Assembly: GCA_964394685.1 (NCBI GenBank)
Contig: CAYMYO010000003.1
Span: 16,218-80,217 of the forward strand
Source of the DNA: an uncultured Gammaproteobacteria bacterium
GTDB lineage: Bacteria > Patescibacteriota > Microgenomatia > UBA10105 > UBA927
DNA: 64,000 bases
Direction of reading: 5' to 3'
Position 1 is the stretch's first letter. Each line of letters opens with the position of its first letter. The translations under genes were made by a program, and so were the position numbers. The notes beneath the pieces were generated by a model that was not told the origin of the DNA, ran no database searches, and saw only the letters and a list, made by a program, of their open reading frames with translations. Below are positions 5,213 through 29,726 of the stretch, one piece after another.

Positions 5213-5241
5213 TTGACTATAAACCTTTTTACAATTATATT
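5213..5241 (+). promoter_or_regulatory. candidate sigma70-type dnaA promoter (TTGACT-17 nt-TATATT)
   Basis: -35 TTGACT at 5213-5218, 17-nt spacer, -10 TATATT at 5236-5241, about 40 nt upstream of the dnaA ATG. Read directly from the sequence. Confidence 0.4.
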
Positions 5242-5259
5242 GTGGATAACTTGTCCACA
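5241..5259. promoter_or_regulatory. pair of DnaA boxes overlapping the dnaA promoter
   Basis: TGTGGATAA at 5241-5249 (reverse complement of consensus TTATCCACA) and TTGTCCACA at 5251-5259 (1 mismatch). They abut the -10 element, the classic dnaA autoregulation arrangement. Confidence 0.5.
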
Positions 5260-6653: not shown

Positions 6654-6819
6654 AATACATAAGTTTTCCACTTGTCCTCTTTTATCAACATTTTATCCAC
6701 AGAGCTATCCACACGGTTAAGCTCTTTATTAATTTTAAATACCAGCCAGTTGACAGGCCCGCCATAAAACCATACACTTTTCAACACTGCTTATTACTAC
6801 TAATACTAATAAATAGAAT
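6654..6819. other. candidate oriC (dnaA-dnaN intergenic DnaA-box cluster plus AT-rich stretch)
   Basis: TTATCAACA (6682-6690, 1 mismatch), perfect TTATCCACA (6693-6701), CTATCCACA (6705-6713), and TTTTCCACT (6664-6672). Followed by AT-rich TTATTAATTTTAAATA and TACTACTAATACTAATAAATAGAATA, which are DUE-like. Confidence 0.55.
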
Positions 6820-7926
6820 ATGAAAGTTTCGATATTACAAAAACACTTATTATCTACGCTGACAAGTGTAGGAAGAATTATTTCTTCAAGGGCCCAACTC
6901 CCAATACTTCAAAACTTTTTATTAGAAACAAAAGGAAATAATTTTATTATTACTGGAACCAATACGGAAACATCAATTGTATCCAGAAGCAGCGCAAAAA
7001 TTGAAAAGGAAGGGGGAGTATGTACTCCTGCAAAACTCCTCGTTGAGTTTATTACTTCTCTTCCAGAGGGAGTAGTGGAATTGAGTGCAAAAGAAGGAGT
7101 GCTTATCATTACTAGTAATGGGTTTGAGGCATCTATCCCCTGTGTGTCAAAAGAAGAATTTCCTCCTCTTCCAAAATATGATAAAACAAAAGGCGCGGAG
7201 ATTCCAAAAGAAACGTTTTTAAGAGCGTTGGAGTCAGTTTTATTTGCGGCGGCAACTGACGAAGGGAGACCAATATTAACAGGGGTGAAGATTCAAAAAG
7301 CAGATAAAGAAACGCTTTTTGTTGCAACAGACGGATATAGGCTTTCTTTAAAGAGAGTAGATTTGGCCATGGAAGAAAACCTCGACATAACCATTCCAGC
7401 AAGAACTTTAACTGAGGTGGTTCACATTGGGCTTGGGGACGGAGAGAATAAGAGTATTATACTTAAAACAATTGATGCGTCTCAACTCGGGTTTTTCCTC
7501 GGAGAAACCGAAATTTACACGAGAATTTTAGACGGAGAGTATCCTAACTTTGAAAAAATTCTTCCTAAAAAATACACAACGAAAATTATCCTTGATAAAG
7601 AAAAGTTTCTTCAGGCGGTTAAATCAGCAAGCATTTTTGCTCGAGATAACGCAAACATCATAAGGTTTATGATGGCCGACGGAGAAATAACCATATCAGC
7701 AAACACCCCGCAAGTTGGGCAAAACAAAGTCGTTCTCGAAGGAGAGGTTGATGGGGAAGGGGGGGAAATCGCCTTTAACTCTCGTTTTGTTCTAGACTTT
7801 CTAGGTCATTTTCAGGAAGAAAAACTTCAATTTGAAATGACAGGCTCATTGAATCCCGGGGTATTTAAATCCACAGAAGACGACAGCTTCCTTCATATCA
7901 TTATGCCGGTAAGAACAAGTGGTTAG
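6820..7926 (+). CDS. dnaN: DNA polymerase III beta sliding clamp
   Basis: 368 aa immediately downstream of dnaA. N-terminal MKVSILQKHLL and three-domain beta-clamp length and architecture. Confidence 0.9.
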   Translation: MKVSILQKHLLSTLTSVGRIISSRAQLPILQNFLLETKGNNFIITGTNTETSIVSRSSAKIEKEGGVCTPAKLLVEFITSLPEGVVELSAKEGVLIITSNGFEASIPCVSKEEFPPLPKYDKTKGAEIPKETFLRALESVLFAAATDEGRPILTGVKIQKADKETLFVATDGYRLSLKRVDLAMEENLDITIPARTLTEVVHIGLGDGENKSIILKTIDASQLGFFLGETEIYTRILDGEYPNFEKILPKKYTTKIILDKEKFLQAVKSASIFARDNANIIRFMMADGEITISANTPQVGQNKVVLEGEVDGEGGEIAFNSRFVLDFLGHFQEEKLQFEMTGSLNPGVFKSTEDDSFLHIIMPVRTSG

Positions 7927-8906
7927 TAAGATTCCATTGCAGAGACGGCATATTTAATTATTAGATTTTCCCCACCTGCTTTTGTTGTTCCGGTAAATAT
8001 ATAGTATGGCTCGAGAAGCAGAGCCCCCTTGTTTGGATAATATATATAAGAAAAGGAAGAGAACAAAACCTCTTGAAAAGAAGGAATTTCATCGAAAAAA
8101 GATACCGCCCTCTCTCTTCCAAGTGAAATAAGCACCCCTTTTCCGTGTTGAATATTATAAACAGCCTCTTCTGTGGTAAGAATGGGCCGCTCGTGTGAAG
8201 CACCAACATCAACAACAAAACCATACATTATTGAACGGACAACACCGGCCTGATTGATAATTAACAGTGCGGAAATCTCGCCAAAAGAAGAGTTGACGAT
8301 CGTTTGGCCGTTTGGAGTTTGACAGGAAAAATAAAACCCTCGAAGCGTTTCTAACGAAACAATTCCATCAAATTGACCCGTTGATTCTTTTGCTAACACC
8401 AAAGAGCAAGAGTTGGCGGATGGGGGAAACGTTTTTTCAATGAAGTTTTTTGCTTGAGCAGCGCTAGTAATCAACCCATGAGAAAAAACAGGCTTATCGC
8501 CCTGACCAAACACCCACCTGTTTTCACCGCTTTGTTCGATGAAAACAAGAGAGGCGGTTTTGTCAGTCCATTTATAAGTAGTGGTATTTTTTGTTGATGT
8601 TTTTAGAGGAATACTAGAAAAGCCAACGCGTCTTGCAATAGAAGCCGATTCGCTGGCCGAGGTGGTTTTTTTTGAATATGAAAACACAGGAAGAACGTTT
8701 TCTGTTGCGGGGATTTTTATTGAAGAAAAATCAATTGTTGTTGGCACCCCAGGAATAATGGTTATCTGGGGCGGGAAAGAAGCCGTTCTTGGCGTTGGGG
8801 CTGAAGTTGGACCGATAATTCCACGAGGTCCTGTTTTGCTTGAAAAAACAAATCCCAGCATGAGAGCAAGAATACCAACAATAACAAAAACTGCTTTTCG
8901 TTTCAT
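7923..8906 (-). CDS. hypothetical exported/membrane-anchored protein (last gene of T4SS-like operon)
   Basis: N-terminal TM/signal (AVFVIVGILALMLGFVF) then Ser/Thr/Pro-rich linker. 4-nt overlap with the upstream M23 gene. Confidence 0.3.
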   Translation of the reverse strand: MKRKAVFVIVGILALMLGFVFSSKTGPRGIIGPTSAPTPRTASFPPQITIIPGVPTTIDFSSIKIPATENVLPVFSYSKKTTSASESASIARRVGFSSIPLKTSTKNTTTYKWTDKTASLVFIEQSGENRWVFGQGDKPVFSHGLITSAAQAKNFIEKTFPPSANSCSLVLAKESTGQFDGIVSLETLRGFYFSCQTPNGQTIVNSSFGEISALLIINQAGVVRSIMYGFVVDVGASHERPILTTEEAVYNIQHGKGVLISLGRERAVSFFDEIPSFQEVLFSSFSYIYYPNKGALLLEPYYIFTGTTKAGGENLIIKYAVSAMESY

Positions 8907-10801
8907 TGGCCACCTCCACCAACGGCCGGATAATTACAGGCAGTACAACCGGTTGTGCCATTGACACAACGATCTATGGCAAAAGGCAATATTGAATTAA
9001 TACTCCTGTTTTGCCCGCTGTTATCAATGAAACTAAAATGAAGATGCGGCCCGCTTGAGCTTCCGCTGTGATCAACTTCGCCAATAACAACGTTTGGAAA
9101 CACCTCTTGCCCTTCGGAAATGCGTATGGTAGATCGAAGCAAATGACCAAATTTAAGAGTGTAATTATATGGAGAAATTCCAACAATAATAATATGATTG
9201 CCCAAATATCCCCCACAAGGGTTTCCTAAAAACCCCTCATAATCAGGACAACCGGCGAAAACCCTAGTTGCGTGTCCGCGGATGGTGGCGTATACATCCG
9301 TTCCACTTGGTGCACCTATGTCAATGGCGTTTGCTTTCGCGTGAGTACCGCCGCAGGAGGTAAATGGTCCTTGGGTAATTGTTCCGTTTGTTGGCCAACG
9401 ACAATCTTGGGAAGAGGGATCACAAGCGGCCATAGAACATAGTGGATCTGTCGGGTTGTTCTCGCAATCAACAAATTGATTTTCGTCTCCCGTTCCAAAC
9501 GCCTGAACAAACGCATTGTCGTCGACGAGTTGTACATATTTTGTAGAAGGAATAATTCCAAGAGAGTCGACAAGAGGAACAACGCCCGCAATGAGAGCGA
9601 CAATTGAAACAAGAACGAGCGCGATGATAAAACTTGCATCTTTCCAGACAGACGGTGTTTCAAAATTGCCGTTGACAAGATCGGTAATAAATTTTAATGA
9701 GAAAAGATTAAACAACCCGGAAACACCGCGACCGACAAAAGAAAGAGCTTTGTCGATAACCAGATCTCCCACAAACCATCCCACGACACTTCCTATTCCG
9801 GGACCGAAAAATCCGCCAATCCACGCACCAAAACTTTTCCCAATTGTTGATGTGACCACTTTTTCTCCTGCCTCTTTTAGCGCCGTTCTTGCGACACCCC
9901 GCATGGTTGCTCCACTTAACGACAATGCAACAGTTGACATTTGGCTCCATGAATAAGATATTGGTTGTTGAAGATAGACGGCATAACGAACCGCATAGAG
10001 CTGTGGGCCAACAAACACAGAGGTGTATGCGTCTGAAAAAAAATTAAACAAAGCATTGTTTGGGGTAAGTCGTACCCCAGGTTGTTGAAAAGACCCAGCA
10101 TTCATTTGTGTTAATGCGCGCTTTATTTCACCGGAATCTGCAATTGTGGATCCCAATTTATCTGTTTTATCTTGAATGGTTTTATGCGCCTTTCCAATTG
10201 CAGCTTGTATGATGTCTTGCTGGGCACCCCGTGGAAGAGCATCAACAACACCCGCAACAATTTTTTGAAGCGGAGTTTCAGCAACAGTTTTAAAAAATCC
10301 TTTTGGTATTTCTGGAAAACCAAGAGAATTAATTGGAAGGTCGGTTTTATCAGAAAAGAAAGAAGCTGCCTCAACAAGTTTTGGTGCCAAATCAGTAAGC
10401 ACAACCTGAGTTGGAGTGGGTTCTGTTTTTGGTTCTATTTCTCGGGTAGTGCGTTCTTGTTTAATTTGTTTAATGTATCTATCAACTTTTATTCCATTGC
10501 TATCAAAAGGAACACGATTTTTTTGAGAAGCTTGCGCCTCTCTTATTTCTTGCATTAATGGTTCGAGCACCTCTTTTGTCGGAATGTTTTTTTCGATAGT
10601 CGTCTGATCAGTCGGTGCTTCGAGTTGTGACAAATAAAAACGAAATTGAGCCTTAAATCCATCAAGCACGCCCAAAAACCTATCATTTGCAAAGTCCATT
10701 GGAATCGCGTTTATATCTAACTGGTGAACAAAATTTGCATATTCTTTTGGATAGAATTTTTGGGCATACAGAAGTAGTTGTAGTGCGTCTTTATCTATCA
10801 T
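8903..10801 (-). CDS. membrane protein with C-terminal M23 (LytM-type) metallopeptidase domain
   Basis: C-terminal HAKANAIDI (HxxxD) and GPHLHFSF (HxH) zinc-ligand motifs of M23 peptidases. Cys-rich segment upstream of the domain. Central TM (IIALVLVSIVALIAGVV). Translationally coupled to the VirB4-like gene. Confidence 0.6.
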   Translation of the reverse strand: MIDKDALQLLLYAQKFYPKEYANFVHQLDINAIPMDFANDRFLGVLDGFKAQFRFYLSQLEAPTDQTTIEKNIPTKEVLEPLMQEIREAQASQKNRVPFDSNGIKVDRYIKQIKQERTTREIEPKTEPTPTQVVLTDLAPKLVEAASFFSDKTDLPINSLGFPEIPKGFFKTVAETPLQKIVAGVVDALPRGAQQDIIQAAIGKAHKTIQDKTDKLGSTIADSGEIKRALTQMNAGSFQQPGVRLTPNNALFNFFSDAYTSVFVGPQLYAVRYAVYLQQPISYSWSQMSTVALSLSGATMRGVARTALKEAGEKVVTSTIGKSFGAWIGGFFGPGIGSVVGWFVGDLVIDKALSFVGRGVSGLFNLFSLKFITDLVNGNFETPSVWKDASFIIALVLVSIVALIAGVVPLVDSLGIIPSTKYVQLVDDNAFVQAFGTGDENQFVDCENNPTDPLCSMAACDPSSQDCRWPTNGTITQGPFTSCGGTHAKANAIDIGAPSGTDVYATIRGHATRVFAGCPDYEGFLGNPCGGYLGNHIIIVGISPYNYTLKFGHLLRSTIRISEGQEVFPNVVIGEVDHSGSSSGPHLHFSFIDNSGQNRSINSILPFAIDRCVNGTTGCTACNYPAVGGGGQ

Positions 10802-12642
10802 AGTGGTTGTTTGTCTTGACTTATCGTTTCAACGGTAAACATAGGACGGGCCTGTGTCTGTTCTTTTTGTTCAGCAATTTCTTGTGGTTTTGTTGTAGCA
10901 AGAGCGTGTTCTTCAGGGCTTGCGATAACCCGGATTGCTGCGTGGGCAGGTCCAGCAAACAACAGCCCCTGACCAATATCAGAAGAGAGGAGTAAATGTT
11001 TTTCTCCTTCAGACAAATAAAATACTTCTGCAACGCGATCGATAGCCGCAGAGGATTGTTTGAGAAGAATTTGAATGGAGCTGTTTTGTATGATGGTTTT
11101 CCCTAAATCTCCAGCCAAAAAATCCTCCACGTCCTGCGTGATGGTTGTTAAACCCAAATAGTATTTTCTACTACGCTTTGCTATGGAATTAAGAAATTGT
11201 GCCGAATCGGGGTATTTCATGAGATACCAAGCTTCATCAACAATTAACACCCGTTTTTTTATAGATTTTCTAATCTTTGTCCAAATAAAATCAAGAATGA
11301 GATACATTGCGATAGGTCGAAGTTCGTCTTCAAGATCTCGAATAGAAAACACAGTAAGATGGTTGGTTATTTCCATATTGGATTGCTGATCAAAAATTCC
11401 AATGAGAGACCCACGAACAAATTTTTCTATTCTATCAGCAAGTCCTCGGGCGGTTGTTTCCTCCATTCCAACCAATGCTTTATACAGGTCTTCCATAAGA
11501 GGAGGCTCCCTGTTTTGTGTAGTTGGATCCGGGGTAATACCCTTTTGTTTATAGGTAAGAACGAGTGCCCGATCAAGAAGTGCGTCTTCAGTGGGTGTTA
11601 GTTTCCCCATAACAACACGGAAAAACCCGTGAAGAGAAAGAATTTTTTGGTTGAGATCATTTTCCTCTTCGCCCACATCTTTCAAAACCGATAAATCAAA
11701 TGGATTGATTTTTGTTTTCCCACCAAATTCAAAACGGGTATACTCGCCTCCAAGTGCATTCGTTAACGCTTCATACTCGTTTTCCGGATCAATAATAATC
11801 ACCTCTGTGTCAAACATGAGGCTTCGAATGACTTCAAGCTTAACCATATACGATTTACCAGATCCGGATTTTCCAAACACCACAGTATTTGCGTTTTCAA
11901 GTGTAAAACGGTCAAAAATAACTAAGCTTTCGTTTCCTTCATTAATTCCATACAACACCCCTTCGTTTGCAGTCAGTTCCGAGGTGGTAAATGGAAATGT
12001 TGTAGCAAGAGAGGTGGTATCCATATTTCTTGTGATCATGAGTCGGTCTTGTCCCATGGGAAGTGTTGTTTTGAATCCCTCTTCCATTTGAAGAACCGCC
12101 TTTTTAGGCATAATCATGAGTGATGCAAGCGTCGCCTCAACCTGTTTAGTAGTTTTGTTTAATTCCTCAAGAGTTTTTGCTGGTATGGTGACATAGAGAC
12201 CAAATTGAAAAAAACGTTCAGAGCCCTTTGCAAGCTCCTGTTGGAGGGATAATGCGTCTTCAAGAGCAACCTGTATTGAGGGTTCAATAACACGACCGCG
12301 TTTTAAATCTGATTGAATAGTGGCCTCCATTTCTCCAACTTTTCGTTTCAGATTGTCTAGTATTTCCTCAGATTTTGATGGATAGACATAGAGCGCCACG
12401 TCAAGTGTGTGATTGAAAGAAATAAGTGGCTCTAGCCAATTAGCGCTAACATAGCGTGGATAGCCTGCAATAAAAAGAGTTCGAACAAGCTGGTCACCAA
12501 TGGTAAGGTGATCGAAGTCAACCTCAATTGCGGGTGGCGCAATGATGTCTTTTGTGGTCAGTGGACCTGACGGAGTCGGACCTTTTAGTGCACTTGGAGG
12601 CTGCAATGTAATAAATGATCGGATGGTATTTTTTATATTCAT
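10798..12642 (-). CDS. VirB4/TrbE/TraC-family type IV secretion ATPase
   Basis: Walker A VVFGKSGSGKSYMV, Walker B RVLIVDEAWYL, and C-terminal ATPase fold. Size 614 aa matches compact VirB4/CagE-like proteins of Gram-positive/CPR-type T4SS. Confidence 0.75.
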   Translation of the reverse strand: MNIKNTIRSFITLQPPSALKGPTPSGPLTTKDIIAPPAIEVDFDHLTIGDQLVRTLFIAGYPRYVSANWLEPLISFNHTLDVALYVYPSKSEEILDNLKRKVGEMEATIQSDLKRGRVIEPSIQVALEDALSLQQELAKGSERFFQFGLYVTIPAKTLEELNKTTKQVEATLASLMIMPKKAVLQMEEGFKTTLPMGQDRLMITRNMDTTSLATTFPFTTSELTANEGVLYGINEGNESLVIFDRFTLENANTVVFGKSGSGKSYMVKLEVIRSLMFDTEVIIIDPENEYEALTNALGGEYTRFEFGGKTKINPFDLSVLKDVGEEENDLNQKILSLHGFFRVVMGKLTPTEDALLDRALVLTYKQKGITPDPTTQNREPPLMEDLYKALVGMEETTARGLADRIEKFVRGSLIGIFDQQSNMEITNHLTVFSIRDLEDELRPIAMYLILDFIWTKIRKSIKKRVLIVDEAWYLMKYPDSAQFLNSIAKRSRKYYLGLTTITQDVEDFLAGDLGKTIIQNSSIQILLKQSSAAIDRVAEVFYLSEGEKHLLLSSDIGQGLLFAGPAHAAIRVIASPEEHALATTKPQEIAEQKEQTQARPMFTVETISQDKQPL

Positions 12643-13274
12643 AGTTTTATTGTTGGCTGTTGAATTCCAGGATTATATAAAGAGAAAAACAATTGAATAA
12701 GCTGATCGTTAGTTAATTGGGAGGAGCGAAGCCCAAGTCTTCCAAGAAGGCGCTGTATATGATCTCGTTTTGGAAGAAGAGCAATGAGAGCTCGTTCGAT
12801 AATATAGGATTTCGCGTAAGGGAGCCCACTCTTTTTGGTGCCAAAGAGCACGTTCGTTGATGGACCCAGTTCAAGATTTGAAAAAGGAATGACGATATAA
12901 AACTTTTTATCCAACACCTCTTTTTCTTTTACTGTTGATTCAATAAAAGCCCGATATCCATGAATACTTTTGATAAGCTTTGGATTTTGCTGTTCTTTTT
13001 CTTTATCTTCAAGAAGCTTGAGGTACGCAGTAATGTCCTTATGTTTAGAGCGAATCAATATCTGAATGGGAAATGATAAAGAGTTAAGAATTCCAGCGTA
13101 CGCGTAAATAATTGCCTCCTGCTCTTTTTCAGAAAGCAAGCCAAAATTAACTGCTGTTACCGACAAAATTAAAGCACACGAGCCGTCAACAAACATGACA
13201 ACGTTTTGTAAAACATCCTCTATTTCTGTAAATTGTTGTGTTGATGCCCGTATTGGTACGACTGGTTCTGTCAT
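12639..13274 (-). CDS. hypothetical protein (T4SS-like operon)
   Basis: 211 aa with no recognisable motif. Overlaps neighbours by 4 nt on both sides, indicating co-transcription. Confidence 0.3.
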   Translation of the reverse strand: MTEPVVPIRASTQQFTEIEDVLQNVVMFVDGSCALILSVTAVNFGLLSEKEQEAIIYAYAGILNSLSFPIQILIRSKHKDITAYLKLLEDKEKEQQNPKLIKSIHGYRAFIESTVKEKEVLDKKFYIVIPFSNLELGPSTNVLFGTKKSGLPYAKSYIIERALIALLPKRDHIQRLLGRLGLRSSQLTNDQLIQLFFSLYNPGIQQPTIKL

Positions 13275-13277
13275 ATA

Positions 13278-14384
13278 TTATGAATTAACTGTTTGCCCAA
13301 AGATTTGTTTTGAGAGCTCTTCTCTGTTAATATCCCGTTTGCTTTTGGCAACAATTTCAATAGCTGGCATGACGGTGCCATTTAATGTAATTTGTGCCCG
13401 GTCAAACAAAAAGCGGCTTCGTGGATCTTCAACCTCAATAATATAAGTTCCATTAGGAAGCTGAGTTGAGGCAGCGAATTGTCCCAGCTTATTTGTTTTT
13501 AGAGCCCGAAGCGGCACCCCTTCTTTATCGCGCACCGTTACCAAGACACCAGGAAGCAATCCTCCAACGTTGTCCTTCACAATTCCGGTTACAACATTGG
13601 AAAAAGTCGTAAGTCGAGGAAGCCCTGCGCGTGTCGCTGCCTCAGGCGGAATTATTTTTACCGTTGGACCCCTTAAAGCCGCGTTTGACGCGGTTATTGG
13701 TGGAGCGGGTTGGTGTGCGCGCATCGGCAGAGGAGGAATGGGTGTTTGAACCTCTTGTTTTTGAAGTTCAAGCGTTTTCAGTTCCGATTGTGTTTTTTCA
13801 TCTAATTGTTGTTCTAATGTTTTTATTTTGTTCTGTAAATCAAGATATTCAGATGATGGTTGTGTTTGTAAAACCGGTTGTTGAACAGCTGGTGAGACAA
13901 TTGGGCGCGTTACGATTACTGACTTAGGAAATAAATCGTCCAGCCAGCCAAAGAGCATATCGCCAAACGACCTCTTTTGCGCAACTGTTTGTTGTGTATA
14001 TAGTCCTCTGAGCCTCTCAGATACAGCTGGACGCTGCGTTGTTGCGGTTGGAGGTTGAGGTTGCACCACTTGTGCTCTTGCTGGTTCTGAAGCAGCTGGA
14101 ATACGATGCCAAATGAATTGAGTGGGACTATATACATTTCGTAAAAACGATAACACCCACACGTCCATCGGGCGTTCTTCAATGGGGACAAACGCAAATC
14201 CAAACCCAAGAAGTCCAAAGAGTACTGTCATTGGCCACGTAAAAAAGAAAGGCAATGGGAGTTTGTAGGAAATAAAAGCAAGTATTGCGCCACCGGCAAG
14301 ATACCCAAATTGTTTAATGGTCATATCTCCGATGAGCCGAAATTGAAACGTGGTGACGTTTTGAGGGACAGGATGTTGTTCCAT
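13278..14384 (-). CDS. membrane protein with Pro/Gln-rich linker, coiled coil and C-terminal beta-sandwich-like domain (VirB10-like topology, speculative)
   Basis: Two N-terminal TM helices, PQPPTATTQRP/Pro-rich region, and QQLDEKTQSELKTLELQKQ coiled coil. C-terminal LPNGTYIIEVEDPR resembles carboxypeptidase-regulatory-like folds. First gene of the operon. Confidence 0.3.
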   Translation of the reverse strand: MEQHPVPQNVTTFQFRLIGDMTIKQFGYLAGGAILAFISYKLPLPFFFTWPMTVLFGLLGFGFAFVPIEERPMDVWVLSFLRNVYSPTQFIWHRIPAASEPARAQVVQPQPPTATTQRPAVSERLRGLYTQQTVAQKRSFGDMLFGWLDDLFPKSVIVTRPIVSPAVQQPVLQTQPSSEYLDLQNKIKTLEQQLDEKTQSELKTLELQKQEVQTPIPPLPMRAHQPAPPITASNAALRGPTVKIIPPEAATRAGLPRLTTFSNVVTGIVKDNVGGLLPGVLVTVRDKEGVPLRALKTNKLGQFAASTQLPNGTYIIEVEDPRSRFLFDRAQITLNGTVMPAIEIVAKSKRDINREELSKQIFGQTVNS

Positions 14385-14446
14385 AGTAGTTATTTTATTG
14401 TAAAGAGAAAACCATATTCCCGCAAGGGGAAAAGCGCATTAGAATC

Positions 14447-16708
14447 GTGAAAACTCAAATTTTTCATTTCACGCAAATTCTCTTGCATCTATGTTATGAT
14501 ATTTTTATGGGTGACGAGCTAACCATTGTCGAAATAAAAAACTCCCGTGATAGCGAAGAAACACCACTTGTTATGGAACAGGTGTTTGCGGCCCTTGGTG
14601 TTGGGAGATCTCATGGAATTCTTGAACAACTATTTGGTCTCAAAGAACATCGATGGTTTTCGTTTGAAATTGGAGTATTCCAATCAATCATTCATTTTTA
14701 TGTTGTGACCCCAAAATCTGCATATTCCTATCTCGAAAGCCAACTCAGTGCACAATACCCAAAGATTATGGTAGCAGCCGTTGCTGATTATGTTCCACCA
14801 TTTATGGCAAATTCACATGCTCTTACACAACTAACGCTCGCGAGCCCGTCATATTATCCTCTAAAAAACTATAAAGACGTGAAAGACATTGATTTGCTCG
14901 CAAGCGTGCTTGGGTGTCTTGCGCGATTTTCAAAAGAACAATCAGCAGTAATACAACTACGAGTTGCGCCCGCTGGAAACGGATGGCGACAAAATGCCGC
15001 TGGGGTTCTTGCCCGCGGTATTGTTGATTCGATTGATCCGCGGCGCTCTAAAGCGCATCCGCAAGCCAGACTCATAGAAACCAAAATGAATCAAACCGGA
15101 TTTCATACGGCATTTCGTGTGGGGATATCAGCGTCAACGCAAGAAGAAGCAAATACGCTACTCCAAACACTTGTTGGAACATATGGAGTATTTGCGCTCG
15201 GAGAAGGGAATGCCCTTGTTTTAACAAAACCAGCATTCTGGCAAACCAATAAATTAAAAGAATCTTTCGTTACCCGCGCAAGGGGTCCAGTGCCGCGACA
15301 TCAAGTGCTTGGATCGGCTGAACTTGCGACACTCTGGCACCCTCCGGGCCTCCTTCTTTCGGCAATTAAAAATATTTCGTGGGGACTGACTCTTGCAGGT
15401 GAACCGCCAGAAAACCTTCCCATTGCAATAGAAAACGAAGAAGACCGGAAACTTATTAACTTTTTTGCCCGGACGGAATTTCGCAATAAGCAAACAACAT
15501 TTGGCATTAAACGCGATGATAGAAGAAAACATATGTATGTGGTGGGAAAAACAGGAACCGGAAAATCAACAATGATAGCTAACATGGCAATTAATGATAT
15601 GAGAAATCACGAGGGATTAGCAGTTATTGATCCCCACGGTGATTTAACAGACGCGCTTCTTGATTACATTCCCTCATTTCGGGTGAACGACATAGCATAT
15701 CTTGACCCATCTGATATTGCCCACCCTTTTCACCTTAATCCGCTTGAGCTCAAAAATCCGGCACACCGGGAGCTTGTTGCCTCAGGTATTGTTTCAATAT
15801 TTTACAAACTCTACCATTATTCGTGGGGACCGCGACTTGAATATATTTTAAGAAACTGTATCCTTACACTGTTATATATTCCAAACACCACACTTCTGCA
15901 GGTGCCGGAGCTTCTGACAAACGACAGATATAGAGATAAAGTGTTGGAGAAACTTCCGGACCAGGTCTTAAAGAATTTCTGGATCAATGAGTTTAACAAA
16001 CTGAGTCCTCAGATGCGAAGCGAAGCAATTATGCCAATATTAAATAAAGTGGGGCAGTTCCTTTCCTCACAAACAATTCGAAACATTGTGGGCAATCCTC
16101 AATCGACCGTTGACTTAGAAGATATGATGAATAAAGGAAAAATAATTTTAGTCAACCTTGCTCAAGGAAAGCTCGGAGAAGACAGCAGTGCGCTACTCGG
16201 AGCCATGATTATAACCAAAATTCAACTAGCGGCCATGAACAGAGTATATGATCAGGAAGCCAATAGGAAGGATTTTTATTTGTATGTGGATGAGTTTCAA
16301 AATTTTGCTACTACTTCATTTATCAAAATTCTTTCAGAGGCGCGGAAGTATCGACTCAATCTAACTCTGGCCAATCAATACATTGGGCAAATTGATGAAG
16401 ATGTCCAAAATGCCATCTTTGGAAATGCCGGATCTCTCGTTTCATTTTGTGTCGGTGCAACAGACGCAAGACCATTGGCAAGAGAATTTGGTCTGAAATA
16501 CAAAGAAGAAGAGTTGGTGCAAATAGGGAACTATCAAGTAATCCTTAAATTATCTATTGATAATCACACCTCAAGTCCATTTTCAGGAACCACCCTTCCG
16601 CTTCCACGGTCTCATAATCAAAACAGAGAAAAAGTCATTCGGTCAAGCCGGGAACGATTTACAAAAAGTTTTGAAAACATTGGAGTGAAAGAAGAAAGTG
16701 CAAAATAA
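14447..16708 (+). CDS. VirD4/TraG/TraD-like type IV coupling ATPase (T4SS DNA-binding domain protein)
   Basis: HMYVVGKTGTGKSTMIAN Walker A followed by VIDPHGDLTDALL. Walker B YLYVDEFQNFAT. Divergent from the VirB4 operon. The likely true start is the internal ATG at 14507 (MGDELT...). Confidence 0.65.
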   Translation: MKTQIFHFTQILLHLCYDIFMGDELTIVEIKNSRDSEETPLVMEQVFAALGVGRSHGILEQLFGLKEHRWFSFEIGVFQSIIHFYVVTPKSAYSYLESQLSAQYPKIMVAAVADYVPPFMANSHALTQLTLASPSYYPLKNYKDVKDIDLLASVLGCLARFSKEQSAVIQLRVAPAGNGWRQNAAGVLARGIVDSIDPRRSKAHPQARLIETKMNQTGFHTAFRVGISASTQEEANTLLQTLVGTYGVFALGEGNALVLTKPAFWQTNKLKESFVTRARGPVPRHQVLGSAELATLWHPPGLLLSAIKNISWGLTLAGEPPENLPIAIENEEDRKLINFFARTEFRNKQTTFGIKRDDRRKHMYVVGKTGTGKSTMIANMAINDMRNHEGLAVIDPHGDLTDALLDYIPSFRVNDIAYLDPSDIAHPFHLNPLELKNPAHRELVASGIVSIFYKLYHYSWGPRLEYILRNCILTLLYIPNTTLLQVPELLTNDRYRDKVLEKLPDQVLKNFWINEFNKLSPQMRSEAIMPILNKVGQFLSSQTIRNIVGNPQSTVDLEDMMNKGKIILVNLAQGKLGEDSSALLGAMIITKIQLAAMNRVYDQEANRKDFYLYVDEFQNFATTSFIKILSEARKYRLNLTLANQYIGQIDEDVQNAIFGNAGSLVSFCVGATDARPLAREFGLKYKEEELVQIGNYQVILKLSIDNHTSSPFSGTTLPLPRSHNQNREKVIRSSRERFTKSFENIGVKEESAK

Positions 16709-17338: not shown

Positions 17339-17359
17339 TGATAAATTACAAATTACAAT

Positions 17360-21045: not shown

Positions 21046-24000
21046 ATGAGCGAGAAGAAAGAAAATGTTTCAGAGATAGTTTCACGATGGATTGGTGCGA
21101 TTGCTGAGGCCGCTGATGCAAAAAAAAGCAAGATTACTCCAGACACGCTTGAAGCAAGAGTTCAAAAATTAGGAGAGACAAAACATACACCCGTTGAGAG
21201 CTTTGAAACTCGTATTCAAAGAGAGCAACGAGAGGCAAAGGAATTTACAGACGCGATTCAGTCGAATCAAAAAAATATTTCTTTAGTGATGGAACAATGG
21301 AAAGCATCAAACAAATACGAAGATCTATTGCCTTTAGATAAAGCAAAAAATAAATTAAAGACAGCATGGAGCTTGTCTAAAAATCAGCCGACGTGGTCAG
21401 GAATAAGCAGTCCAGAACAAATTGAGTATAGCGCCGCGGCCGCTGAATATCTATCAACAGTTGCGCTTTTACCACAAGAACTTGCAGAAGATCCGAATGT
21501 TTTTTTCCACGAAACCGCGAAATTTGCCGCATCCATGAGCAGTGATCCTTTGGCTCGGGAAGAAGAATTAAAAATACTTAACCAGGCAATTATTCATCAA
21601 GAAAAATTAAAAGGTTTTACTTTAAGTAAAGAAGACACCATTTACACCCTTCGCGGATTTGTTCTGTATGACAAAGAACTAGATGGTGACATTTTAGATC
21701 CGGTTAACCAAGTTGAAGCAAAGAATTTTCTTACGGAAATACAAGGGAGAATTGAAACGAGAAAAACAGGTGGCATTTCTGCTCAAGACGAGGCAATGTA
21801 TTTAAAACGACAAGGAGATACCATTGCCGCAAGTGATTATTACGTCATAGATAATATCCATCCGTCGCAGAAATATCAAATTAAGGATAAAAAAGTTCTA
21901 GAACCATTCGAAAGAAGAATTAATCGTCGAGTTGCAGAATTGACAGAAATAAATAAAGCACAGCGTCAAGCAGAATATCAATCACGCACATTTGAAGGAG
22001 CAGAATTTAATACCCCAGAGGAGTTAAAAAAAGGAATCGAAGCTCATTTTCTGAGATTTGAAGCTCCAACCGAGGAAATAAAAGAGAAAATGCTACGTCT
22101 GAGTCCAGAAGACCAGGAAAAATTTAAAAAAGAAATAATAAAAGGGATACGAAAAACTGTTGAGAGGTTGGAAAATAATCCCGAAAATTGGCGTATTGGC
22201 GGTATAGAGCCACTTCCAAGATCATTGATGTCTTGGATGCTTATTTTAGAAGATATGGGAGACCATAAATTATATGAAAAGATACATATAGAGACAGAAG
22301 CAAGATCCTGCCAGCATGTGATATATGAAACTTTAAAAAAGGGTGGTTCGCCAAGTGATATGAAAGATTTTCAAAAAGTTCAAGGTGATTTTGATAAAAT
22401 GGAGTTTCAAGAAGCAATAACTCATATTCCAGGTATGGCCAAGACACAAATGTTACTTGATGAACGATATGAAAGAGTTATTAAGGGCGAATTAAATCCA
22501 GTAGAAAAACAAAAAGTAAAAGATGAAATCCTAACAATATTACGAGACGACAAAACAATTTGTGATACAGAACACACAGGGATAACACCAGAAGCAGCAC
22601 TTGAGCTGGCTACCCGACACTATTTTGAACAAGGTAGGGATGGATTTAAGTATAGGGAATACATTCGTAAACATCATCTCCTTGGGACAACAAAAGATAA
22701 ACATGGAAATACAATTTGGGTTGTTGATCCGAATGCTCCGCTTAAATGGGATCCATATCGTTTATTATATTGTCCTGAGGCAATGCCAGCGTTTTTTAAA
22801 TTTGGTTCTAGTCAAGCTGGAGATGTTAGTAAGCTAACATTGCCAAATGGTAAGACAATTGAGGCAGTATTCGCTCAAGGAGTTGGAGCAGATTTTTATA
22901 AAAGTCTACTGGATCACGGATTTGATTTAAAAGTTACTGACTATGTTTCTCGGAGAAGAGATTATGAACTAGAAGCATGGATTTCAGAACAATTAGATAC
23001 GAAACAGGAACGCGGAGGAAGTAGTCAAGTGATTTGGGAATTAGGGTCGTTAAAAAGAGATGAACGAGGAGAAGATTCCATAGAATGGAATGCACTTCAA
23101 AGAGAAATAATGACTAATGATCCAACATTAGGAGAGCTTCGCTCTTTTCAAAGACAAGAAATCCGTTTGAGTTATAATATCAAATTTGCAGATGAGTTTG
23201 GTGTGAATGTATGGTCAGCATATTCAGAAAATGAAAAAAATTATCTTCAAAACGTTCAGACTTTGCGCACTAAAGCGTCAAATCAAGGTAGAACAGATAT
23301 TGTCCAGGAGCTTGATGCATTAAAGGATAGATATACAGCTACTCTTGCCAGAGCACGAGAAATTAATGATAAGTTTAAGAAAGACGTTTGTGAGAAAAAC
23401 GGTATAAAACTAGAAGAATACGAGTTCGTCTATGGAGATTTTTTTCCGTCGTTAGCTAAATTTGACGAAAGTAAAATTCCATGGATGAGAGTAGGAAGAC
23501 TTCAGGAAAACAAAAGAGGTAACTATAGAGACCATATAAACGCACTTACCCCAATGCAACAGGTGGCTGACTGCGCCATATATCCATCAGAAGAGAATAT
23601 TTTGAAAGTAGATCATAAAGCTATGTGTGGATATACAACGCTAACAAACGCACAAAAACATTTGATGTACCCCGTTTTGCAAGCATATATAGATGTTCAA
23701 AGAGGGAAAGGACCATTTGGGTCTGAAGTGACAAGTCTTTTGGAAGTAGGGAAAAGTAAAGTTGCAAAAGCATATGATCAAAAATCCAAGACTGATTTGG
23801 ATATATATAAGATTGTTCGTCAGCTTGTTGCCAAGGGAGCTTTATCTCGGGATGTAGCATATAAGATTAGAGGAGGATTTGCCGGTCGTGTTAGAGATAA
23901 AATACTTGAATACGCTGACCCTGCGAGTTTGGTTATTTTGCTTGGAGCTATAGTTCAGGAAGAAGCGAAAAAAACACAAAAGGATTTAGAAAAAGGTTAA
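21046..24000 (+). CDS. large hypothetical protein (984 aa), Glu/Lys-rich, predicted largely helical
   Basis: Long uninterrupted ORF with no recognisable catalytic motif. Lies between the cassette array and the VirB6-like/pilin genes. Confidence 0.4.
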   Translation: MSEKKENVSEIVSRWIGAIAEAADAKKSKITPDTLEARVQKLGETKHTPVESFETRIQREQREAKEFTDAIQSNQKNISLVMEQWKASNKYEDLLPLDKAKNKLKTAWSLSKNQPTWSGISSPEQIEYSAAAAEYLSTVALLPQELAEDPNVFFHETAKFAASMSSDPLAREEELKILNQAIIHQEKLKGFTLSKEDTIYTLRGFVLYDKELDGDILDPVNQVEAKNFLTEIQGRIETRKTGGISAQDEAMYLKRQGDTIAASDYYVIDNIHPSQKYQIKDKKVLEPFERRINRRVAELTEINKAQRQAEYQSRTFEGAEFNTPEELKKGIEAHFLRFEAPTEEIKEKMLRLSPEDQEKFKKEIIKGIRKTVERLENNPENWRIGGIEPLPRSLMSWMLILEDMGDHKLYEKIHIETEARSCQHVIYETLKKGGSPSDMKDFQKVQGDFDKMEFQEAITHIPGMAKTQMLLDERYERVIKGELNPVEKQKVKDEILTILRDDKTICDTEHTGITPEAALELATRHYFEQGRDGFKYREYIRKHHLLGTTKDKHGNTIWVVDPNAPLKWDPYRLLYCPEAMPAFFKFGSSQAGDVSKLTLPNGKTIEAVFAQGVGADFYKSLLDHGFDLKVTDYVSRRRDYELEAWISEQLDTKQERGGSSQVIWELGSLKRDERGEDSIEWNALQREIMTNDPTLGELRSFQRQEIRLSYNIKFADEFGVNVWSAYSENEKNYLQNVQTLRTKASNQGRTDIVQELDALKDRYTATLARAREINDKFKKDVCEKNGIKLEEYEFVYGDFFPSLAKFDESKIPWMRVGRLQENKRGNYRDHINALTPMQQVADCAIYPSEENILKVDHKAMCGYTTLTNAQKHLMYPVLQAYIDVQRGKGPFGSEVTSLLEVGKSKVAKAYDQKSKTDLDIYKIVRQLVAKGALSRDVAYKIRGGFAGRVRDKILEYADPASLVILLGAIVQEEAKKTQKDLEKG

Positions 24001-26816: not shown

Positions 26817-27206
26817 TCAAGGAGTAGGTATTTCAATGCCGAATGTTGTGACGGTAACTCCTGTGAACTTTTCAATAAGAAGGAGAATGAGGTAACTACT
26901 GACGAGAACCAATAGTCCTGCAAACGCGCCGGTGAGCGTTCCTTTTGCTTTTTCAAGCTTTTTCTGATCTCCTCCTGAAAAAAGAAAAGAAAATCCGCCA
27001 ACCAGTAACATAACGAAAAGAACCACTCCGGAAAACATCACAATGGCCTTAATGATATTAGTAATAAGCATTGTCAGAGAGCCAATGGTTGCTACATCAG
27101 CAACTGCATCAGTACCAGATTTCTGTAATGCTCCCCAGGTTGGAGCCTGTGCAAGTAATGACATTTTTTTAATATGGCCTTGGAAGATTAATTCCTTGCG
27201 AACCAA
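26817..27206 (-). CDS. T4SS pilin (VirB2/TrbC-like) paralog 6
   Basis: Two TM helices flanking a conserved GGFSFLFSGGD...KLEKAKGTLTGAFAGLLVL loop. A probable start at an internal Met (about 27164) would remove the overlap with the upstream paralog. Confidence 0.55.
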   Translation of the reverse strand: MVRKELIFQGHIKKMSLLAQAPTWGALQKSGTDAVADVATIGSLTMLITNIIKAIVMFSGVVLFVMLLVGGFSFLFSGGDQKKLEKAKGTLTGAFAGLLVLVSSYLILLLIEKFTGVTVTTFGIEIPTP

Positions 27207-27498
27207 TGACGTTGATACCTAGGAAATTCTGAACCAATGCCATGACTGCCCATGCGGCGCCGACGATAATAAGACCAACAATAGCATGCGTTATCTTGTT
27301 TCTTGCTGTTTCCATGTGCGTTTTATCTCCACCAGAGGTGATCCACTGGATGCCTCCAAGAATAAGATATAAAAACGCCATGAGTGCAGCGAGTATGAGA
27401 AGCGTGCCGACGATAGCGCTAATAAGCATTCCAACATCAGTAATTTTTACACCCGGTGGTTGTGCGACCGTTAAATCAGCTGCAAATATTTTAAACAT
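27169..27498 (-). CDS. T4SS pilin (VirB2/TrbC-like) paralog 5
   Basis: LYLILGGIQWITSGGDKTHMETARNKITHAIVGLIIVGAAWA conserved core shared with neighbouring paralogs. 109 aa. Confidence 0.6.
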   Translation of the reverse strand: MFKIFAADLTVAQPPGVKITDVGMLISAIVGTLLILAALMAFLYLILGGIQWITSGGDKTHMETARNKITHAIVGLIIVGAAWAVMALVQNFLGINVIGSQGINLPRPY

Positions 27499-27547
27499 AC
27501 GTCACCTCCTCATGGTTACTACTTTTTATATTATACGGTACTTTTTA

Positions 27548-27907
27548 CTATTGAGCAATCGTTCCGCCAAAAGACGGAATTCTAAGAGCCTTCACATTAA
27601 GTCCAAAAAATTGTCCGACAAGAGCAAAAATAGCGTAGGCCGCTGCCACAATAACAAGCCCAACAAGCGCATTGGTAATTTTATCTTTTGCCGTTTCGAG
27701 TTTTGATTTGTCTCCGGATGATGTTATCCACGATAGACCTCCAGTAAGGAGATAGAGAAAAGTGAGAAGAAATGCAAAAAGAAAGAATAATCCGCCGATA
27801 TTTGATATAAGCATGCCGATAATCGTTGCACCTTGTTCTTTTGGTCCGGAGCCAAGAATTGGAGGAAGGACAGGGTTAGTTAGATCAGCGAGTAATTTTT
27901 GTTCCAT
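27548..27907 (-). CDS. T4SS pilin (VirB2/TrbC-like) paralog 4
   Basis: LYLLTGGLSWITSSGDKSKLETAKDKITNALVGLVIVAAAYA core. 119 aa. Confidence 0.6.
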   Translation of the reverse strand: MEQKLLADLTNPVLPPILGSGPKEQGATIIGMLISNIGGLFFLFAFLLTFLYLLTGGLSWITSSGDKSKLETAKDKITNALVGLVIVAAAYAIFALVGQFFGLNVKALRIPSFGGTIAQ

Positions 27908-27909
27908 AG

Positions 27910-28356
27910 TTATTTAAATTTAATTGTATGAATGACAGAGTCAGGCATTAAAATATTTTCCCACCCAAAAAATTCACCTGCTAAGGCAAGAACCGCCCAA
28001 CCGGCCACAACAATGACAAGTCCCACAAATGCATTGGTGAGTTTATCCCGTGCTTGTGTGAGTTTTGTTTTATCTCCTCCAGCGGTAATCCAGGAGATGC
28101 CTCCGGTGATAAATGTTATAAAAAACCAAAATGCTGCCACAACGGTCATGAGTCCAATCACAGCTGATAATGCGCCAGTGAGTTTCCCCATTGCTGTTAA
28201 AGGATTATTTAGCCCAGCTGCGGTTGGATTGCCGAATGGCCCCAATCCTTCAATGTTGCCCAATGGTGTTCCTGTTATTTGTGGCATAGCATTATTTTGG
28301 CCCGTAAATAACGGGACTAAGCATAAACATCGGATTTCCAAAGAGTATGTAGCCAA
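27910..28356 (-). CDS. T4SS pilin (VirB2/TrbC-like) paralog 3
   Basis: FITGGISWITAGGDKTKLTQARDKLTNAFVGLVIVVAGWA core. Probable start at the internal Met near 28287, which removes the overlap with paralog 2. Confidence 0.55.
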   Translation of the reverse strand: MATYSLEIRCLCLVPLFTGQNNAMPQITGTPLGNIEGLGPFGNPTAAGLNNPLTAMGKLTGALSAVIGLMTVVAAFWFFITFITGGISWITAGGDKTKLTQARDKLTNAFVGLVIVVAGWAVLALAGEFFGWENILMPDSVIHTIKFK

Positions 28357-28648
28357 ATATGGCTGTCAGGACAAATGATCCGGCGATGATGGCAAGTCCC
28401 AGAAGTGTTTGCCATATTCTACTCCATGCGCTTGTTAGTTTTTTTGCATCTCCTGCAGCGGTCATATATTCAAAACCAGCAATGATGATATTTACGAGTG
28501 CGTACATACCGGCCACAACAAAAATAAGCCGCAGGATATTTGAAAAAAAGGCAGTAAGCCCTCCACCCTCTACACCACCATAGAGGTTCAATGGATTCTT
28601 AATTTCCCCGACAATAGAATCAGCCGCAAAAATTTTTTCTAGTATCAT
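28292..28648 (-). CDS. T4SS pilin (VirB2/TrbC-like) paralog 2
   Basis: NIIIAGFEYMTAAGDAKKLTSAWSRIWQTLLGLAIIAGSFV core. 118 aa. Confidence 0.55.
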   Translation of the reverse strand: MILEKIFAADSIVGEIKNPLNLYGGVEGGGLTAFFSNILRLIFVVAGMYALVNIIIAGFEYMTAAGDAKKLTSAWSRIWQTLLGLAIIAGSFVLTAIFGYILFGNPMFMLSPVIYGPK

Positions 28649-28995
28649 AAAAAAGTCGGTTTGAGAATGTCAATACCAGTAATAATTTCAATAATTTGAA
28701 TGATCCAATACGCTGCAATAATCAATATTAGTCCGGTGAGTGCGCTGGTAATAGTGTTTTTCCCTTTTTCCTTGGCTTTTGCATCTCCTCCTGCTGATAC
28801 TATAAAGCTAAATCCGCCTAAAATCAATAAAACAAGGCATATGACCCCGGCAATAGTCAGCGCATTTTTAAGAAGTATGTTAACAAGAGTACTAATAGAG
28901 GTGATGGATGTTGACGGAGCAAGATCTTTTAAGTCCATATAAAAAGTGTACGAAAAACAAGTAGCAAATACAAGGCTGAGTTTGTATAATAGCAC
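28645..28995 (-). CDS. T4SS pilin (VirB2/TrbC-like) paralog 1
   Basis: LLILGGFSFIVSAGGDAKAKEKGKNTITSALTGLILIIAAYW core. First gene of the six-gene array. Divergent from the ECF sigma gene. Confidence 0.55.
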   Translation of the reverse strand: MLLYKLSLVFATCFSYTFYMDLKDLAPSTSITSISTLVNILLKNALTIAGVICLVLLILGGFSFIVSAGGDAKAKEKGKNTITSALTGLILIIAAYWIIQIIEIITGIDILKPTFL

Positions 28996-28996
28996 T

Positions 28997-29509
28997 ATGT
29001 TTCTTCGTGATAAACAGACAGCCGCAAAATTTTACCAAACATATAGACCAAAACTGTTGGCTTTTGTGCGGTCTAAAATTACCAATCCTCATGAAGCAGA
29101 AGACGTTGTGCAGGATACTTTATTTGCGTTTCTTGAGGCAATCCGTGATTTTCATGGAAACTGTCGGATATCTACATACCTTTTTTCCATTTGCAGACAT
29201 AAAGTAATAGATTATTATAGGAAGAAAAAAATAAAACAGATTGTATTTTCTCATGCTTCGGAAATAGAAGACGTATTATCACCGCTTTTGAGTCCGGAAG
29301 AAACATTAGACGCAGTTTTACTGAAAGAAAAGCTTCATAAAACACTTCAAAAATTGTTGCCTCAATATACGTATATTCTTCAAGCGCGATATATTCTTAA
29401 TATGTCTGTCGCTGATATCGCAAAAAAACTGGCTACCACGCTCAAAAGCGCAGAAATGACCTTGTTTCGGGCACGAAAAGCATTTATACAAACGTATGAA
29501 AAAGAATAA
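28997..29509 (+). CDS. ECF-type RNA polymerase sigma-70 family factor
   Basis: Region 2 (YRPKLLAFVRSKI...EAEDVVQDTLFAFLEAIRDF) and region 4 HTH (LQARYILNMSVADIAKKLATTLKSAEMTLFRARK). Start taken at the second Met to avoid a divergent overlap. The ORF track starts at 28946. Confidence 0.7.
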   Translation: MFLRDKQTAAKFYQTYRPKLLAFVRSKITNPHEAEDVVQDTLFAFLEAIRDFHGNCRISTYLFSICRHKVIDYYRKKKIKQIVFSHASEIEDVLSPLLSPEETLDAVLLKEKLHKTLQKLLPQYTYILQARYILNMSVADIAKKLATTLKSAEMTLFRARKAFIQTYEKE

Positions 29510-29726
29510 TAAGCAAGCGTTTTTGAACAGGTGGCAGGAGACGACTGAAATTCCTGTGCAAACCATTGGACCCTTTACTCCGTATTACAAAGAAGTGACA
29601 AAGCGATTAAAAACAATGCCATTTCCATTATTAATTGCAGTATCCATTATAATCGTGGGATTGCTGGTATACTTGCTTGGGTCTTCTGTAACCAGACTCG
29701 TGTCCTTATTACAACGAGGGTTTTAA
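29496..29726 (+). CDS. small single-TM protein, putative anti-sigma factor
   Basis: Overlaps the sigma stop by 14 nt. Single TM (FPLLIAVSIIIVGLLVYLLG). The assignment is positional only. Confidence 0.3.
   Translation: MKKNNKQAFLNRWQETTEIPVQTIGPFTPYYKEVTKRLKTMPFPLLIAVSIIIVGLLVYLLGSSVTRLVSLLQRGF

Follow-up and report, generated by a model that had tools for sequence, protein, structure and literature searches.

Does the minus-strand operon that meets dnaN beside the probable replication origin of contig CAYMYO010000003.1 (GenBank assembly GCA_964394685.1) encode a conjugation apparatus, or a type IV secretion system (T4SS) of another kind? We analysed a 64-kb stretch of this contig, here called the window; all positions are given in its numbering, and approximately 66 of its open reading frames (ORFs) were scanned against protein families. 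The locus has a VirB4, an adjacent TrsD, a PrgI protein and an array of PF18895 pilins, it lies close to dnaA and dnaN, and no relaxase was found in the window. We therefore read it as a chromosomal, relaxase-free Patescibacteria T4SS derived from MPF-FATA, and give this reading as a whole a probability of about 85%. Such a system and its origin-proximal placement are already known, and the kind of system is not new. In the survey of 3,035 Patescibacteria genomes by Quinonero-Coronel (2025; PMC12102498), VirB4 was found in 2,417, forming a clade nested within monoderm MPF-FATA, and relaxases in only 103. The one modest addition made by the window is a DUF8128 ATPase encoded divergently from the operon, which has no transmembrane (TM) segment, whose N-terminal domain has a predicted fold resembling that of the VirB4 N-terminal domain, and which neighbours virB4 in this clade only.

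The 614-aa ATPase of the operon matched the NCBIfam model conju_CD1110 with 399 bits (cut-off 325) over model positions 185–730, the VirB4 family of a Mycoplasma integrated conjugative element (ICE) with 252 bits and P-loop_TraG with 92 bits. Its Walker A (GKSGSGKS) and Walker B (VDEAW) motifs were read from the sequence. A preliminary description of this DNA had called the protein VirB4-like; with a match above the curated NCBIfam cut-off it is, as judged by sequence, a bona fide VirB4. The neighbouring 211-aa protein, listed as hypothetical in the same description, is encoded as proposed but can now be named TrsD/TraC-like. It matched positions 127–237 of NF045975 (E = 9.5e-8) and the TrsD model NF041427 (E = 1.3e-5; 25 bits, below the 200-bit cut-off), and its orthologue in the related metagenomic locus L083 bears PF26593 (TraC-like). 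The trsD-like gene overlaps virB4 by 4 nt, and its product supplies the extreme N-terminal part that is absent from the VirB4 of the window. The first gene of the operon encodes a protein with 9.5% Pro overall. This is the Pro-rich membrane protein noted earlier, now identified as PrgI/VirB3-like above the Pfam cut-off: a PrgI domain at residues 5–88 (PF12666, 29.8 bits; cut-off 27), within which a two-helix hairpin can be read from the sequence, is followed by a Pro/Gln-rich linker and a CarboxypepD_reg-like beta-sandwich (PF13620, 23.8 bits). TrsD is the most abundant VirB4 companion in Patescibacteria, and PrgI/VirB3 homologues are present as well (PMC12102498).

The two remaining operon genes encode proteins that face the cell envelope. 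The membrane protein with an M23 peptidase, correctly recognised before, keeps its position in relatives and is likely the cell-wall-opening component, a role that belongs to VirB1 in other systems. The last gene encodes an orphan of 327 aa whose N-terminus bears a membrane anchor or signal peptide, followed by approximately 300 aa that form an exposed domain, in agreement with the exported protein that had been expected here. Only four close homologues were found among 5.8 billion proteins, and 69 representatives of the family (E ≤ 1e-3, all approximately 320–350 aa long) among 1.84 billion clusters. Its positional orthologues in relatives are homologous (98% by hhalign), but recognisable by profile comparison only. 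The family gave no match to Pfam or NCBIfam families and none to the PDB by sequence or profile, and a Pfam scan of 66 members yielded noise only. A TcpC/VirB8-like internal two-domain repeat was considered for this protein, and the repeat test was negative. The protein could be the missing VirB8-like scaffold, an adhesin or a host-binding factor.

The operon consists of five minus-strand ORFs (7923–14384). It had been described as having 4-nt overlaps throughout, which holds for three of the junctions, whereas TrsD and PrgI are separated by a 3-nt gap. At its distal end, the stop codon of dnaN (TAG, 7924–7926) and that of the last operon gene (TAA, complement of 7923–7925) form a 4-nt tail-to-tail overlap, exactly as reported before. 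The same junction is always tight in the closest relatives (loci L001–L012), ranging from a 6-nt overlap to an 18-nt gap. Because terminators have no room there, convergent read-through or antisense transcription is likely. Terminator-like structures in excess between 7.7 and 17 kb were scattered through coding sequence, and a consensus promoter scan of the same region gave no more sites than shuffled sequence.

Perfect DnaA boxes occur only twice in the whole window, at 5241 and 6693, in small clusters that flank dnaA, and the cumulative GC skew has its minimum near 6 kb and climbs steadily to the right. The cluster at 6682–6713 is likely the oriC core. The 3' end of the operon lies approximately 1.2 kb from this cluster, and transcription runs toward the origin, head-on to the rightward fork. 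ORF map, Pfam matches, DnaA boxes and skew thus agree with the five-gene minus-strand operon beside dnaN and oriC, pointing at the origin, of the preliminary description. Both T4SS operons of the window are oriented head-on to replication; to the right of oriC, most of the remaining genes run in the direction of the fork. In Microgenomatia and Paceibacteria, virB4 has dnaA and dnaN among its most frequent neighbours, which was read as a gene-dosage effect (PMC12102498). By our own reasoning, this argument seems weak for slow-growing cells without multifork replication.

The T4SS genes form two minus-strand loci approximately 10 kb apart, the second of which spans 24022–28995; nadD, nadE and cassette genes lie between them. 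The first gene product of interest in the second locus is a polytopic 459-aa protein that is encoded with T4SS genes and always stands next to the pilin array in relatives. Its earlier designation as VirB6-like holds for topology and position, but no sequence family matches. A gene for an AAA_14/DUF4143 ATPase (25523–26761, plus strand) is inserted here between the VirB6 candidate and the pilins, which are directly adjacent in most relatives.

The pilin count of eight paralogs given before was confirmed. The six tandem genes encode proteins with 24–58% pairwise identity and PF18895 scores of 24.5–35.5 bits (four of six above the cut-off of 26.6), and two further genes at 36592–37975 were recognised with 28.8 bits for PF18895 and hmmsearch E-values of 1e-21 and 2e-13. 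VirB2-like pilins often occur in arrays of 2–11 in Patescibacteria, especially in Microgenomatia and Saccharimonadia, and monoderm systems were reported to be without pilins (PMC12102498). The pilins at 26817–28995 and 36592–36966 also weakly matched NF045849, the "pilin-like conjugal transfer protein" of a Mycoplasma ICE (26–27 bits; cut-off 40). Against the usual view, these matches hint that monoderm MPF-FATA systems may not lack VirB2-like proteins entirely.

An ECF sigma factor gene and the gene of a 76-aa partner diverge from the pilin array, and this pairing is kept in relatives. On the other side, converging on the VirB6 candidate, a conserved slot holds a large protein. The 984-aa protein of the window gave no Pfam, NCBIfam or PDB match. 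Highly variable, family-less proteins occupy the slot in the relatives L001–L012 and L083–L084 (1147–1365 aa; 980–1365 aa overall). By hhalign, the slot-mates fall into three unrelated families, and the 984-aa protein shares its first approximately 230 aa with one group and nothing with the two others. Such a pattern would suit a polymorphic T4SS substrate, which is speculation on our part. The coordinates of all features are collected in Table 1.

Table 1. Origin region, T4SS genes and associated features of the 64-kb window
Feature	Position	Strand	Evidence or remark
Two DnaA boxes (one perfect)	5241..5259		directly 5' of dnaA
dnaA	5280..6653	+	Pfam Bac_DnaA 213 bits, Bac_DnaA_C 80 bits
DnaA-box cluster, three boxes (one perfect), then AT-rich stretch	6682..6713		in the 166-bp dnaA–dnaN spacer
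dnaN (beta clamp)	6820..7926	+	Pfam DNA_pol3_beta, all three domains
Orphan protein, 327 aa, last operon gene	7923..8906	-	TM residues 5–23
Membrane protein with C-terminal M23/LytM peptidase, 632 aa	8903..10801	-	Peptidase_M23 47 bits; TM 392–410
VirB4 ATPase, MPF-FATA type, 614 aa	10798..12642	-	NCBIfam conju_CD1110 and P-loop_TraG
TrsD/TraC-like protein, 211 aa	12639..13274	-	homologous to N-terminal part of VirB4
PrgI/VirB3-like two-helix membrane protein, 368 aa, first operon gene	13278..14384	-	PF12666, PF13620
Divergent intergenic region, 122 bp	14385..14506		presumed promoters for both directions
Soluble ATPase, 733 aa	14507..16708	+	N-terminal DUF8128 (~290 aa) and T4CP/DUF87-type motor
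Large protein, 984 aa, no family	21046..24000	+	conserved slot, converges on VirB6 candidate
VirB6 candidate, 459 aa, signal peptide and ~seven TM helices	24022..25401	-	topology and position only
Six tandem VirB2-like pilin genes, 109–148 aa, two-helix hairpins	26817..28995	-	PF18895 T4SS_pilin
ECF sigma factor and 76-aa single-TM protein (possible anti-sigma factor)	28946..29726	+	Sigma70_r2/r4_2; TIGR02937 90 bits
Two more pilin-domain genes: 124 aa (36592–36966); 348 aa with C-terminal pilin domain (36929–37975)	36592..37975	-	PF18895

By sequence, the genome is that of a Gottesmanbacteria-like member of the Patescibacteria (Microgenomatia); homologues of the divergent ATPase and of the 459-aa protein were found in Candidatus Gottesmanbacteria, Microgenomates and other Patescibacteria. 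One genome per species was scanned for relatives of this second ATPase, which gave 80 loci, and the window proteins were mapped on them. The closest clade comprises L001–L012, with eight species that have enough flanking sequence to be judged. The whole arrangement, in order and orientation, was the same in all eight. On the left, dnaA and dnaN are followed on the minus strand by the genes for the anchored protein of approximately 330 aa, the TM-M23 protein, VirB4, TrsD and PrgI. On the right, the second ATPase and nadD (plus) precede the gene of a 1147–1365-aa protein (plus), the VirB6 candidate with three to six pilins (minus) and the ECF sigma factor (plus). Hence the question raised by the preliminary description, namely whether close relatives conserve the locus next to the origin, is answered by eight other species that keep it with its orientation. 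In L083, the part from the ECF sigma factor to VirB4 is kept, with a VirB6 candidate only 42% identical. Across the eight species, identities amounted to 73–87% for VirB4, 64–78% for TrsD and 64–75% for the second ATPase, as compared to 62–80% for DnaA and 47–58% for DnaN. Thus, constraint on the cytoplasmic core is no weaker than on the replication proteins. Divergence is fast in the exposed parts, with 40–51% identity for the VirB6 candidate and 25–31%, over partial matches, for the M23 protein.

The second ATPase had been described as a VirD4/TraG-like coupling protein that is atypical in lacking obvious TM helices and in having a soluble N-domain of about 300 aa. We regard the ATG at 14507 as a more likely start than the GTG at 14447, because homologues of 724–734 aa align with the 733-aa form over its entire length. 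No hydrophobic or TM segment was found across the 733 aa, and the N-domain measures approximately 290 aa, so that the atypical architecture was described correctly. Homologues carry PF26449 (DUF8128) at the N-terminus; a literature search found no mention of PF26449 or DUF8128. The Walker A (GKTGTGKST) and Walker B (DEFQ) motifs lie in invariant alignment columns. Both TrwB_AAD_bind (29 bits; cut-off 20.5) and DUF87 (30 bits) scored above their Pfam cut-offs, and the best NCBIfam matches were weak ones to coupling-protein families, slightly favouring a motor of the type IV coupling protein (T4CP) kind over VirB4. The assignment as a coupling ATPase consequently stands for TrwB_AAD_bind, but DUF87/HerA scores equally and the N-domain is predicted to resemble that of VirB4. 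"VirD4-like" applies loosely.

In the full-length AlphaFold model (predicted local distance difference test score, pLDDT, 66; residues 598–703 poor, with pLDDT below 50), an all-helical insertion (residues 418–530) separates Walker A from Walker B. Compared with the PDB, this model matched TrwK/VirB4 best and over its full length, then the motor domains of DotL and TrwB, then HerA; the Foldseek matches to TrwB, DotL and Cag-beta had E-values of 5e-8 to 1e-5. Modelled alone, the N-domain gave a soluble alpha/beta fold (pLDDT 84; predicted template-modelling score, pTM, 0.86), for which the top 14 PDB matches were all TrwK/VirB4 (E down to 2e-6, TM-score 0.48–0.58). The next matches were unrelated ferredoxin-like enzymes (E of approximately 1e-3, TM-score of approximately 0.33). 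RecA-type ATPases were absent from this list, indicating a match to the VirB4-specific N-terminal domain. The comparison of profiles by hhalign between the DUF8128 N-domain and the TrsD and VirB4 of the clade gave no signal (E = 0.3–0.4), so the link to the VirB4 N-terminal domain comes from predicted structure alone. In its predicted fold, DUF8128 accordingly resembles the N-terminal domain of VirB4 and not HerA, which speaks against a translocase of the HerA/FtsK type. A canonical coupling protein has an N-terminal TM domain, which is lacking here; the nucleotide-binding domain and the all-alpha insertion are present. According to the models, the ATPase combines a two-domain layout like that of VirB4 with a T4CP-like motor, and it is without the canonical membrane anchor of coupling proteins.

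From these components, we infer how the machine is assembled, what it moves and where the second ATPase acts. By analogy with what is known of MPF-FATA and VirB systems, the PrgI/VirB3-like protein, TrsD and VirB4 would form a membrane-associated energising complex, with the polytopic 459-aa protein as the membrane channel in the role of VirB6. The M23 peptidase would open the cell wall, the eight VirB2-like pilins may build an extracellular filament or conduit, and the 327-aa anchored protein could be an accessory of the cell surface that evolves rapidly. Control of the operon of the pilins and the VirB6 candidate probably lies with the ECF sigma pair. The N-terminal domain of VirB4 contacts VirB3 and VirB8 in the R388 structures. 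The soluble DUF8128 ATPase is related to the VirB4/VirD4 family, and it may use its VirB4-like N-terminal domain instead of TM helices to dock on the membrane complex. The assembled machine would serve a host-dependent way of life, moving proteins, or molecules of another kind, to or from a host cell to which the cell presumably attaches, and we weakly favour contact-dependent export of proteins to the host over uptake.

Several observations weigh against this reading. The VirB6 candidate has no Pfam match (E ≤ 1), NCBIfam match or PDB profile match, and a Pfam domain was found in none of its 120 homologues. In line with this, VirB6 has been described as "scarce" in Microgenomatia, possibly because it has diverged (PMC12102498). 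A VirB8-like component was not identified, the relaxase scan covered the 64-kb window, and reviews call the role of the Patescibacteria T4SS "completely unknown". The second ATPase, finally, may not belong to the machine. In 68 of the 80 related loci, neither VirB4 nor TrsD nor PrgI is encoded within 10 kb of it; the homologues there, spread over many Microgenomatia orders, are 45–59% identical and have no conserved neighbour. This agrees with the survey, in which T4CP homologues occurred in more genomes than VirB4 (2,918 vs 2,417), only 148 of 5,713 lay near virB4, and the homologue of Southlakia epibionticum was non-essential (PMC12102498). The linkage to virB4 is specific to the clade of the window. 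Together with a conservation that is very strong for a protein of the candidate phyla radiation, these data make it a serious possibility, to which we give slightly less than even odds, that the DUF8128 protein is a housekeeping ATPase of many Patescibacteria whose place next to the operon in this clade is incidental. Its head-to-head arrangement with the PrgI-TrsD-VirB4 operon, however, holds across the clade including L083, the nearest solved folds are T4SS ATPases, with TrwK/VirB4, DotL and TrwB ahead of HerA, and the N-domain specifically matches that of VirB4. A bolder proposal makes the protein a third, undescribed branch of the VirB4/VirD4 ATPases, soluble, with a VirB4-type docking domain, Patescibacteria-wide and T4SS-linked only in this clade, and makes the contents of the large-protein slot polymorphic substrates; in this combined form we consider it doubtful.

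An ICE, or its decaying remnant, that landed beside the origin would also account for the conjugative ancestry of all components (conju_CD1110, the Mycoplasma ICE VirB4 family, TrsD and the weak ICE pilin-like match) and for a GC content slightly raised at 8–10 kb (0.438) and 14–16 kb (0.432) as compared to a window average of approximately 0.39. Yet none of the approximately 66 ORFs scanned matched a relaxase, integrase, recombinase or transposase family. No tRNA gene was found at the locus borders, the nearest being at 44 kb, no ncRNA family lies near the locus, and the only flanking direct repeats that could serve as att sites were a 19-nt, 84% pair at chance level. Housekeeping genes, dnaN and nadD, abut the locus. 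Moreover, the order and orientation kept by eight species and the higher identity of VirB4 than of DnaN point to vertical inheritance under selection and not to decay, and the published VirB4 tree shows class-specific lineages that were rarely exchanged (PMC12102498). The lack of mobile-element marks and the conserved synteny thus rule out an ordinary integrated conjugative element, and the remnant is extremely improbable as well. Since no relaxase was found in the window, conjugation is unlikely, and the preliminary proposal of a chromosomal, possibly non-conjugative T4SS gains support from window scan, borders and synteny alike. A relaxase-free machine might also work inward, in a pilus-assisted uptake of host DNA, nucleotides or building blocks comparable to Helicobacter ComB or archaeal Ced. 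Patescibacteria are unable to synthesise nucleotides, amino acids or lipids; in S. epibionticum, comEC is dispensable but the T4SS essential; two reviews raise uptake, with effector delivery also considered. In the window, VirB4 and the second ATPase weakly match the archaeal DNA-import ATPases CedB (50 bits) and CedD (27–28 bits), and a gene of the comF family (ComFC-like) lies at 43617–44312. The Ced matches are, however, far weaker than the conjugative VirB4 match of 399 bits, accessory proteins of the ComB or Ced type were not seen in the window, and a full isoprenoid pathway is encoded next door, so that not every building block is imported. The direction of transport is not readable from sequence, and we consider uptake unlikely, though well worth keeping in mind. 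We therefore retain the relaxase-free, MPF-FATA-derived T4SS, with a slight preference for export, as the best account of the locus.

Few machines have been shown to be indispensable for the epibiotic life of these ultrasmall bacteria, and the Patescibacteria T4SS is among them. Transposon sequencing (Tn-seq) of the saccharibacterium S. epibionticum revealed that the T4SS genes SEML1_0006–0019, located at the chromosome start, and the pilin array are essential; a recognisable coupling protein or relaxase was lacking in that system (Wang 2023; PMC10633639). The window offers a clean, well-conserved example from Microgenomatia, in which nearly all candidate parts, namely PrgI, TrsD, VirB4, the hydrolase, the VirB6 candidate, the pilin array, the regulator and the second ATPase, are found within 22 kb of oriC. 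It provides three leads: the predicted VirB4-like fold of DUF8128, the orphan surface protein as a candidate for a VirB8 or adhesin role, and the hypervariable slot of the large protein.

Other genes of the window are described here for completeness. Between nadD and the gene of the large protein, cassette-like insertions (17343–21032) are found that do not occur in relatives. They comprise a 23S rRNA IVP-family gene inside 49-nt inverted repeats, followed by nadE, a HEPN/nucleotidyltransferase pair and a Fic-domain gene. A repeat of approximately 130 nt recurs before the HEPN pair (18612–18744), the Fic gene (19542–19673) and the large-protein gene (partial, 20974–21032). In some bacteria, Fic proteins serve as T4SS effectors. 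An operon for the methylerythritol phosphate (MEP) pathway (ispH, dxr, ispD, ispF, ispE, ispG) occupies 30406–35310, downstream of the conserved genes for the ECF sigma factor and Yip1; mevalonate genes (HMG-CoA reductase, HMG-CoA synthase, thiolase, GHMP kinases) stand at the equivalent position in L083 (1–5741). At this position, one isoprenoid route seems to have been swapped for the other between related Gottesmanbacteria. Farther to the right, smpB is followed by tmRNA (42387–43295), and a free-standing ORF for a LAGLIDADG endonuclease (46287–47282) lies among tRNA genes. An apparent defence island (50756–59244) encodes a PLD/NgoFVII-like nuclease, a Shedu SduA_C protein, a PD-(D/E)XK nuclease, a Schlafen AlbA_2 protein, a DUF2726 protein and a fusion of RNase H with a PIF1 helicase.

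How does the locus compare with known machines? With the T4SSs of the Patescibacteria clade, it shares VirB4 with an adjacent TrsD, the PrgI/VirB3-like protein, a peptidase gene downstream of virB4, a divergent VirB2-like array, the lack of a relaxase and the chromosomal position beside dnaA and dnaN. It differs from most of them in the T4CP-like ATPase directly beside the virB4 operon, an arrangement that is rare in the survey. Further differences are the linkage of PrgI to virB4, found for only 22.6% of the VirB3 homologues of Microgenomatia (PMC12102498), and the split of the T4SS into two operons 10 kb apart. Monoderm MPF-FATA systems (C. difficile CTn CD1110, pGO1 Trs, pCF10 Prg, Mycoplasma ICE) provided the best matches for VirB4, TrsD and PrgI, and like them the locus has a membrane-bound cell-wall hydrolase and no outer-membrane core of the VirB7/9/10 type. 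In contrast to them, it is free of relaxase and oriT in the window, has a pilin array and is vertically inherited beside oriC instead of residing on a mobile element.

The second ATPase resembles TrwB, VirD4, DotL and Cag-beta in its TrwB_AAD_bind motor, its predicted all-helical insertion and its Foldseek matches, but has DUF8128 in place of a TM domain and no partner relaxase in the window. Some Gram-positive coupling proteins, for instance TraJ of pIP501, lack TM helices, too. With TrwK/VirB4 of R388 (PDB 7o42, 7o43, 8rtb, 8rtd), the ATPase shares the layout of N-terminal domain and ATPase, its model aligning over 750–880 columns, whereas sequence identity is approximately 10% and its motor lies slightly nearer to T4CP in sequence models.

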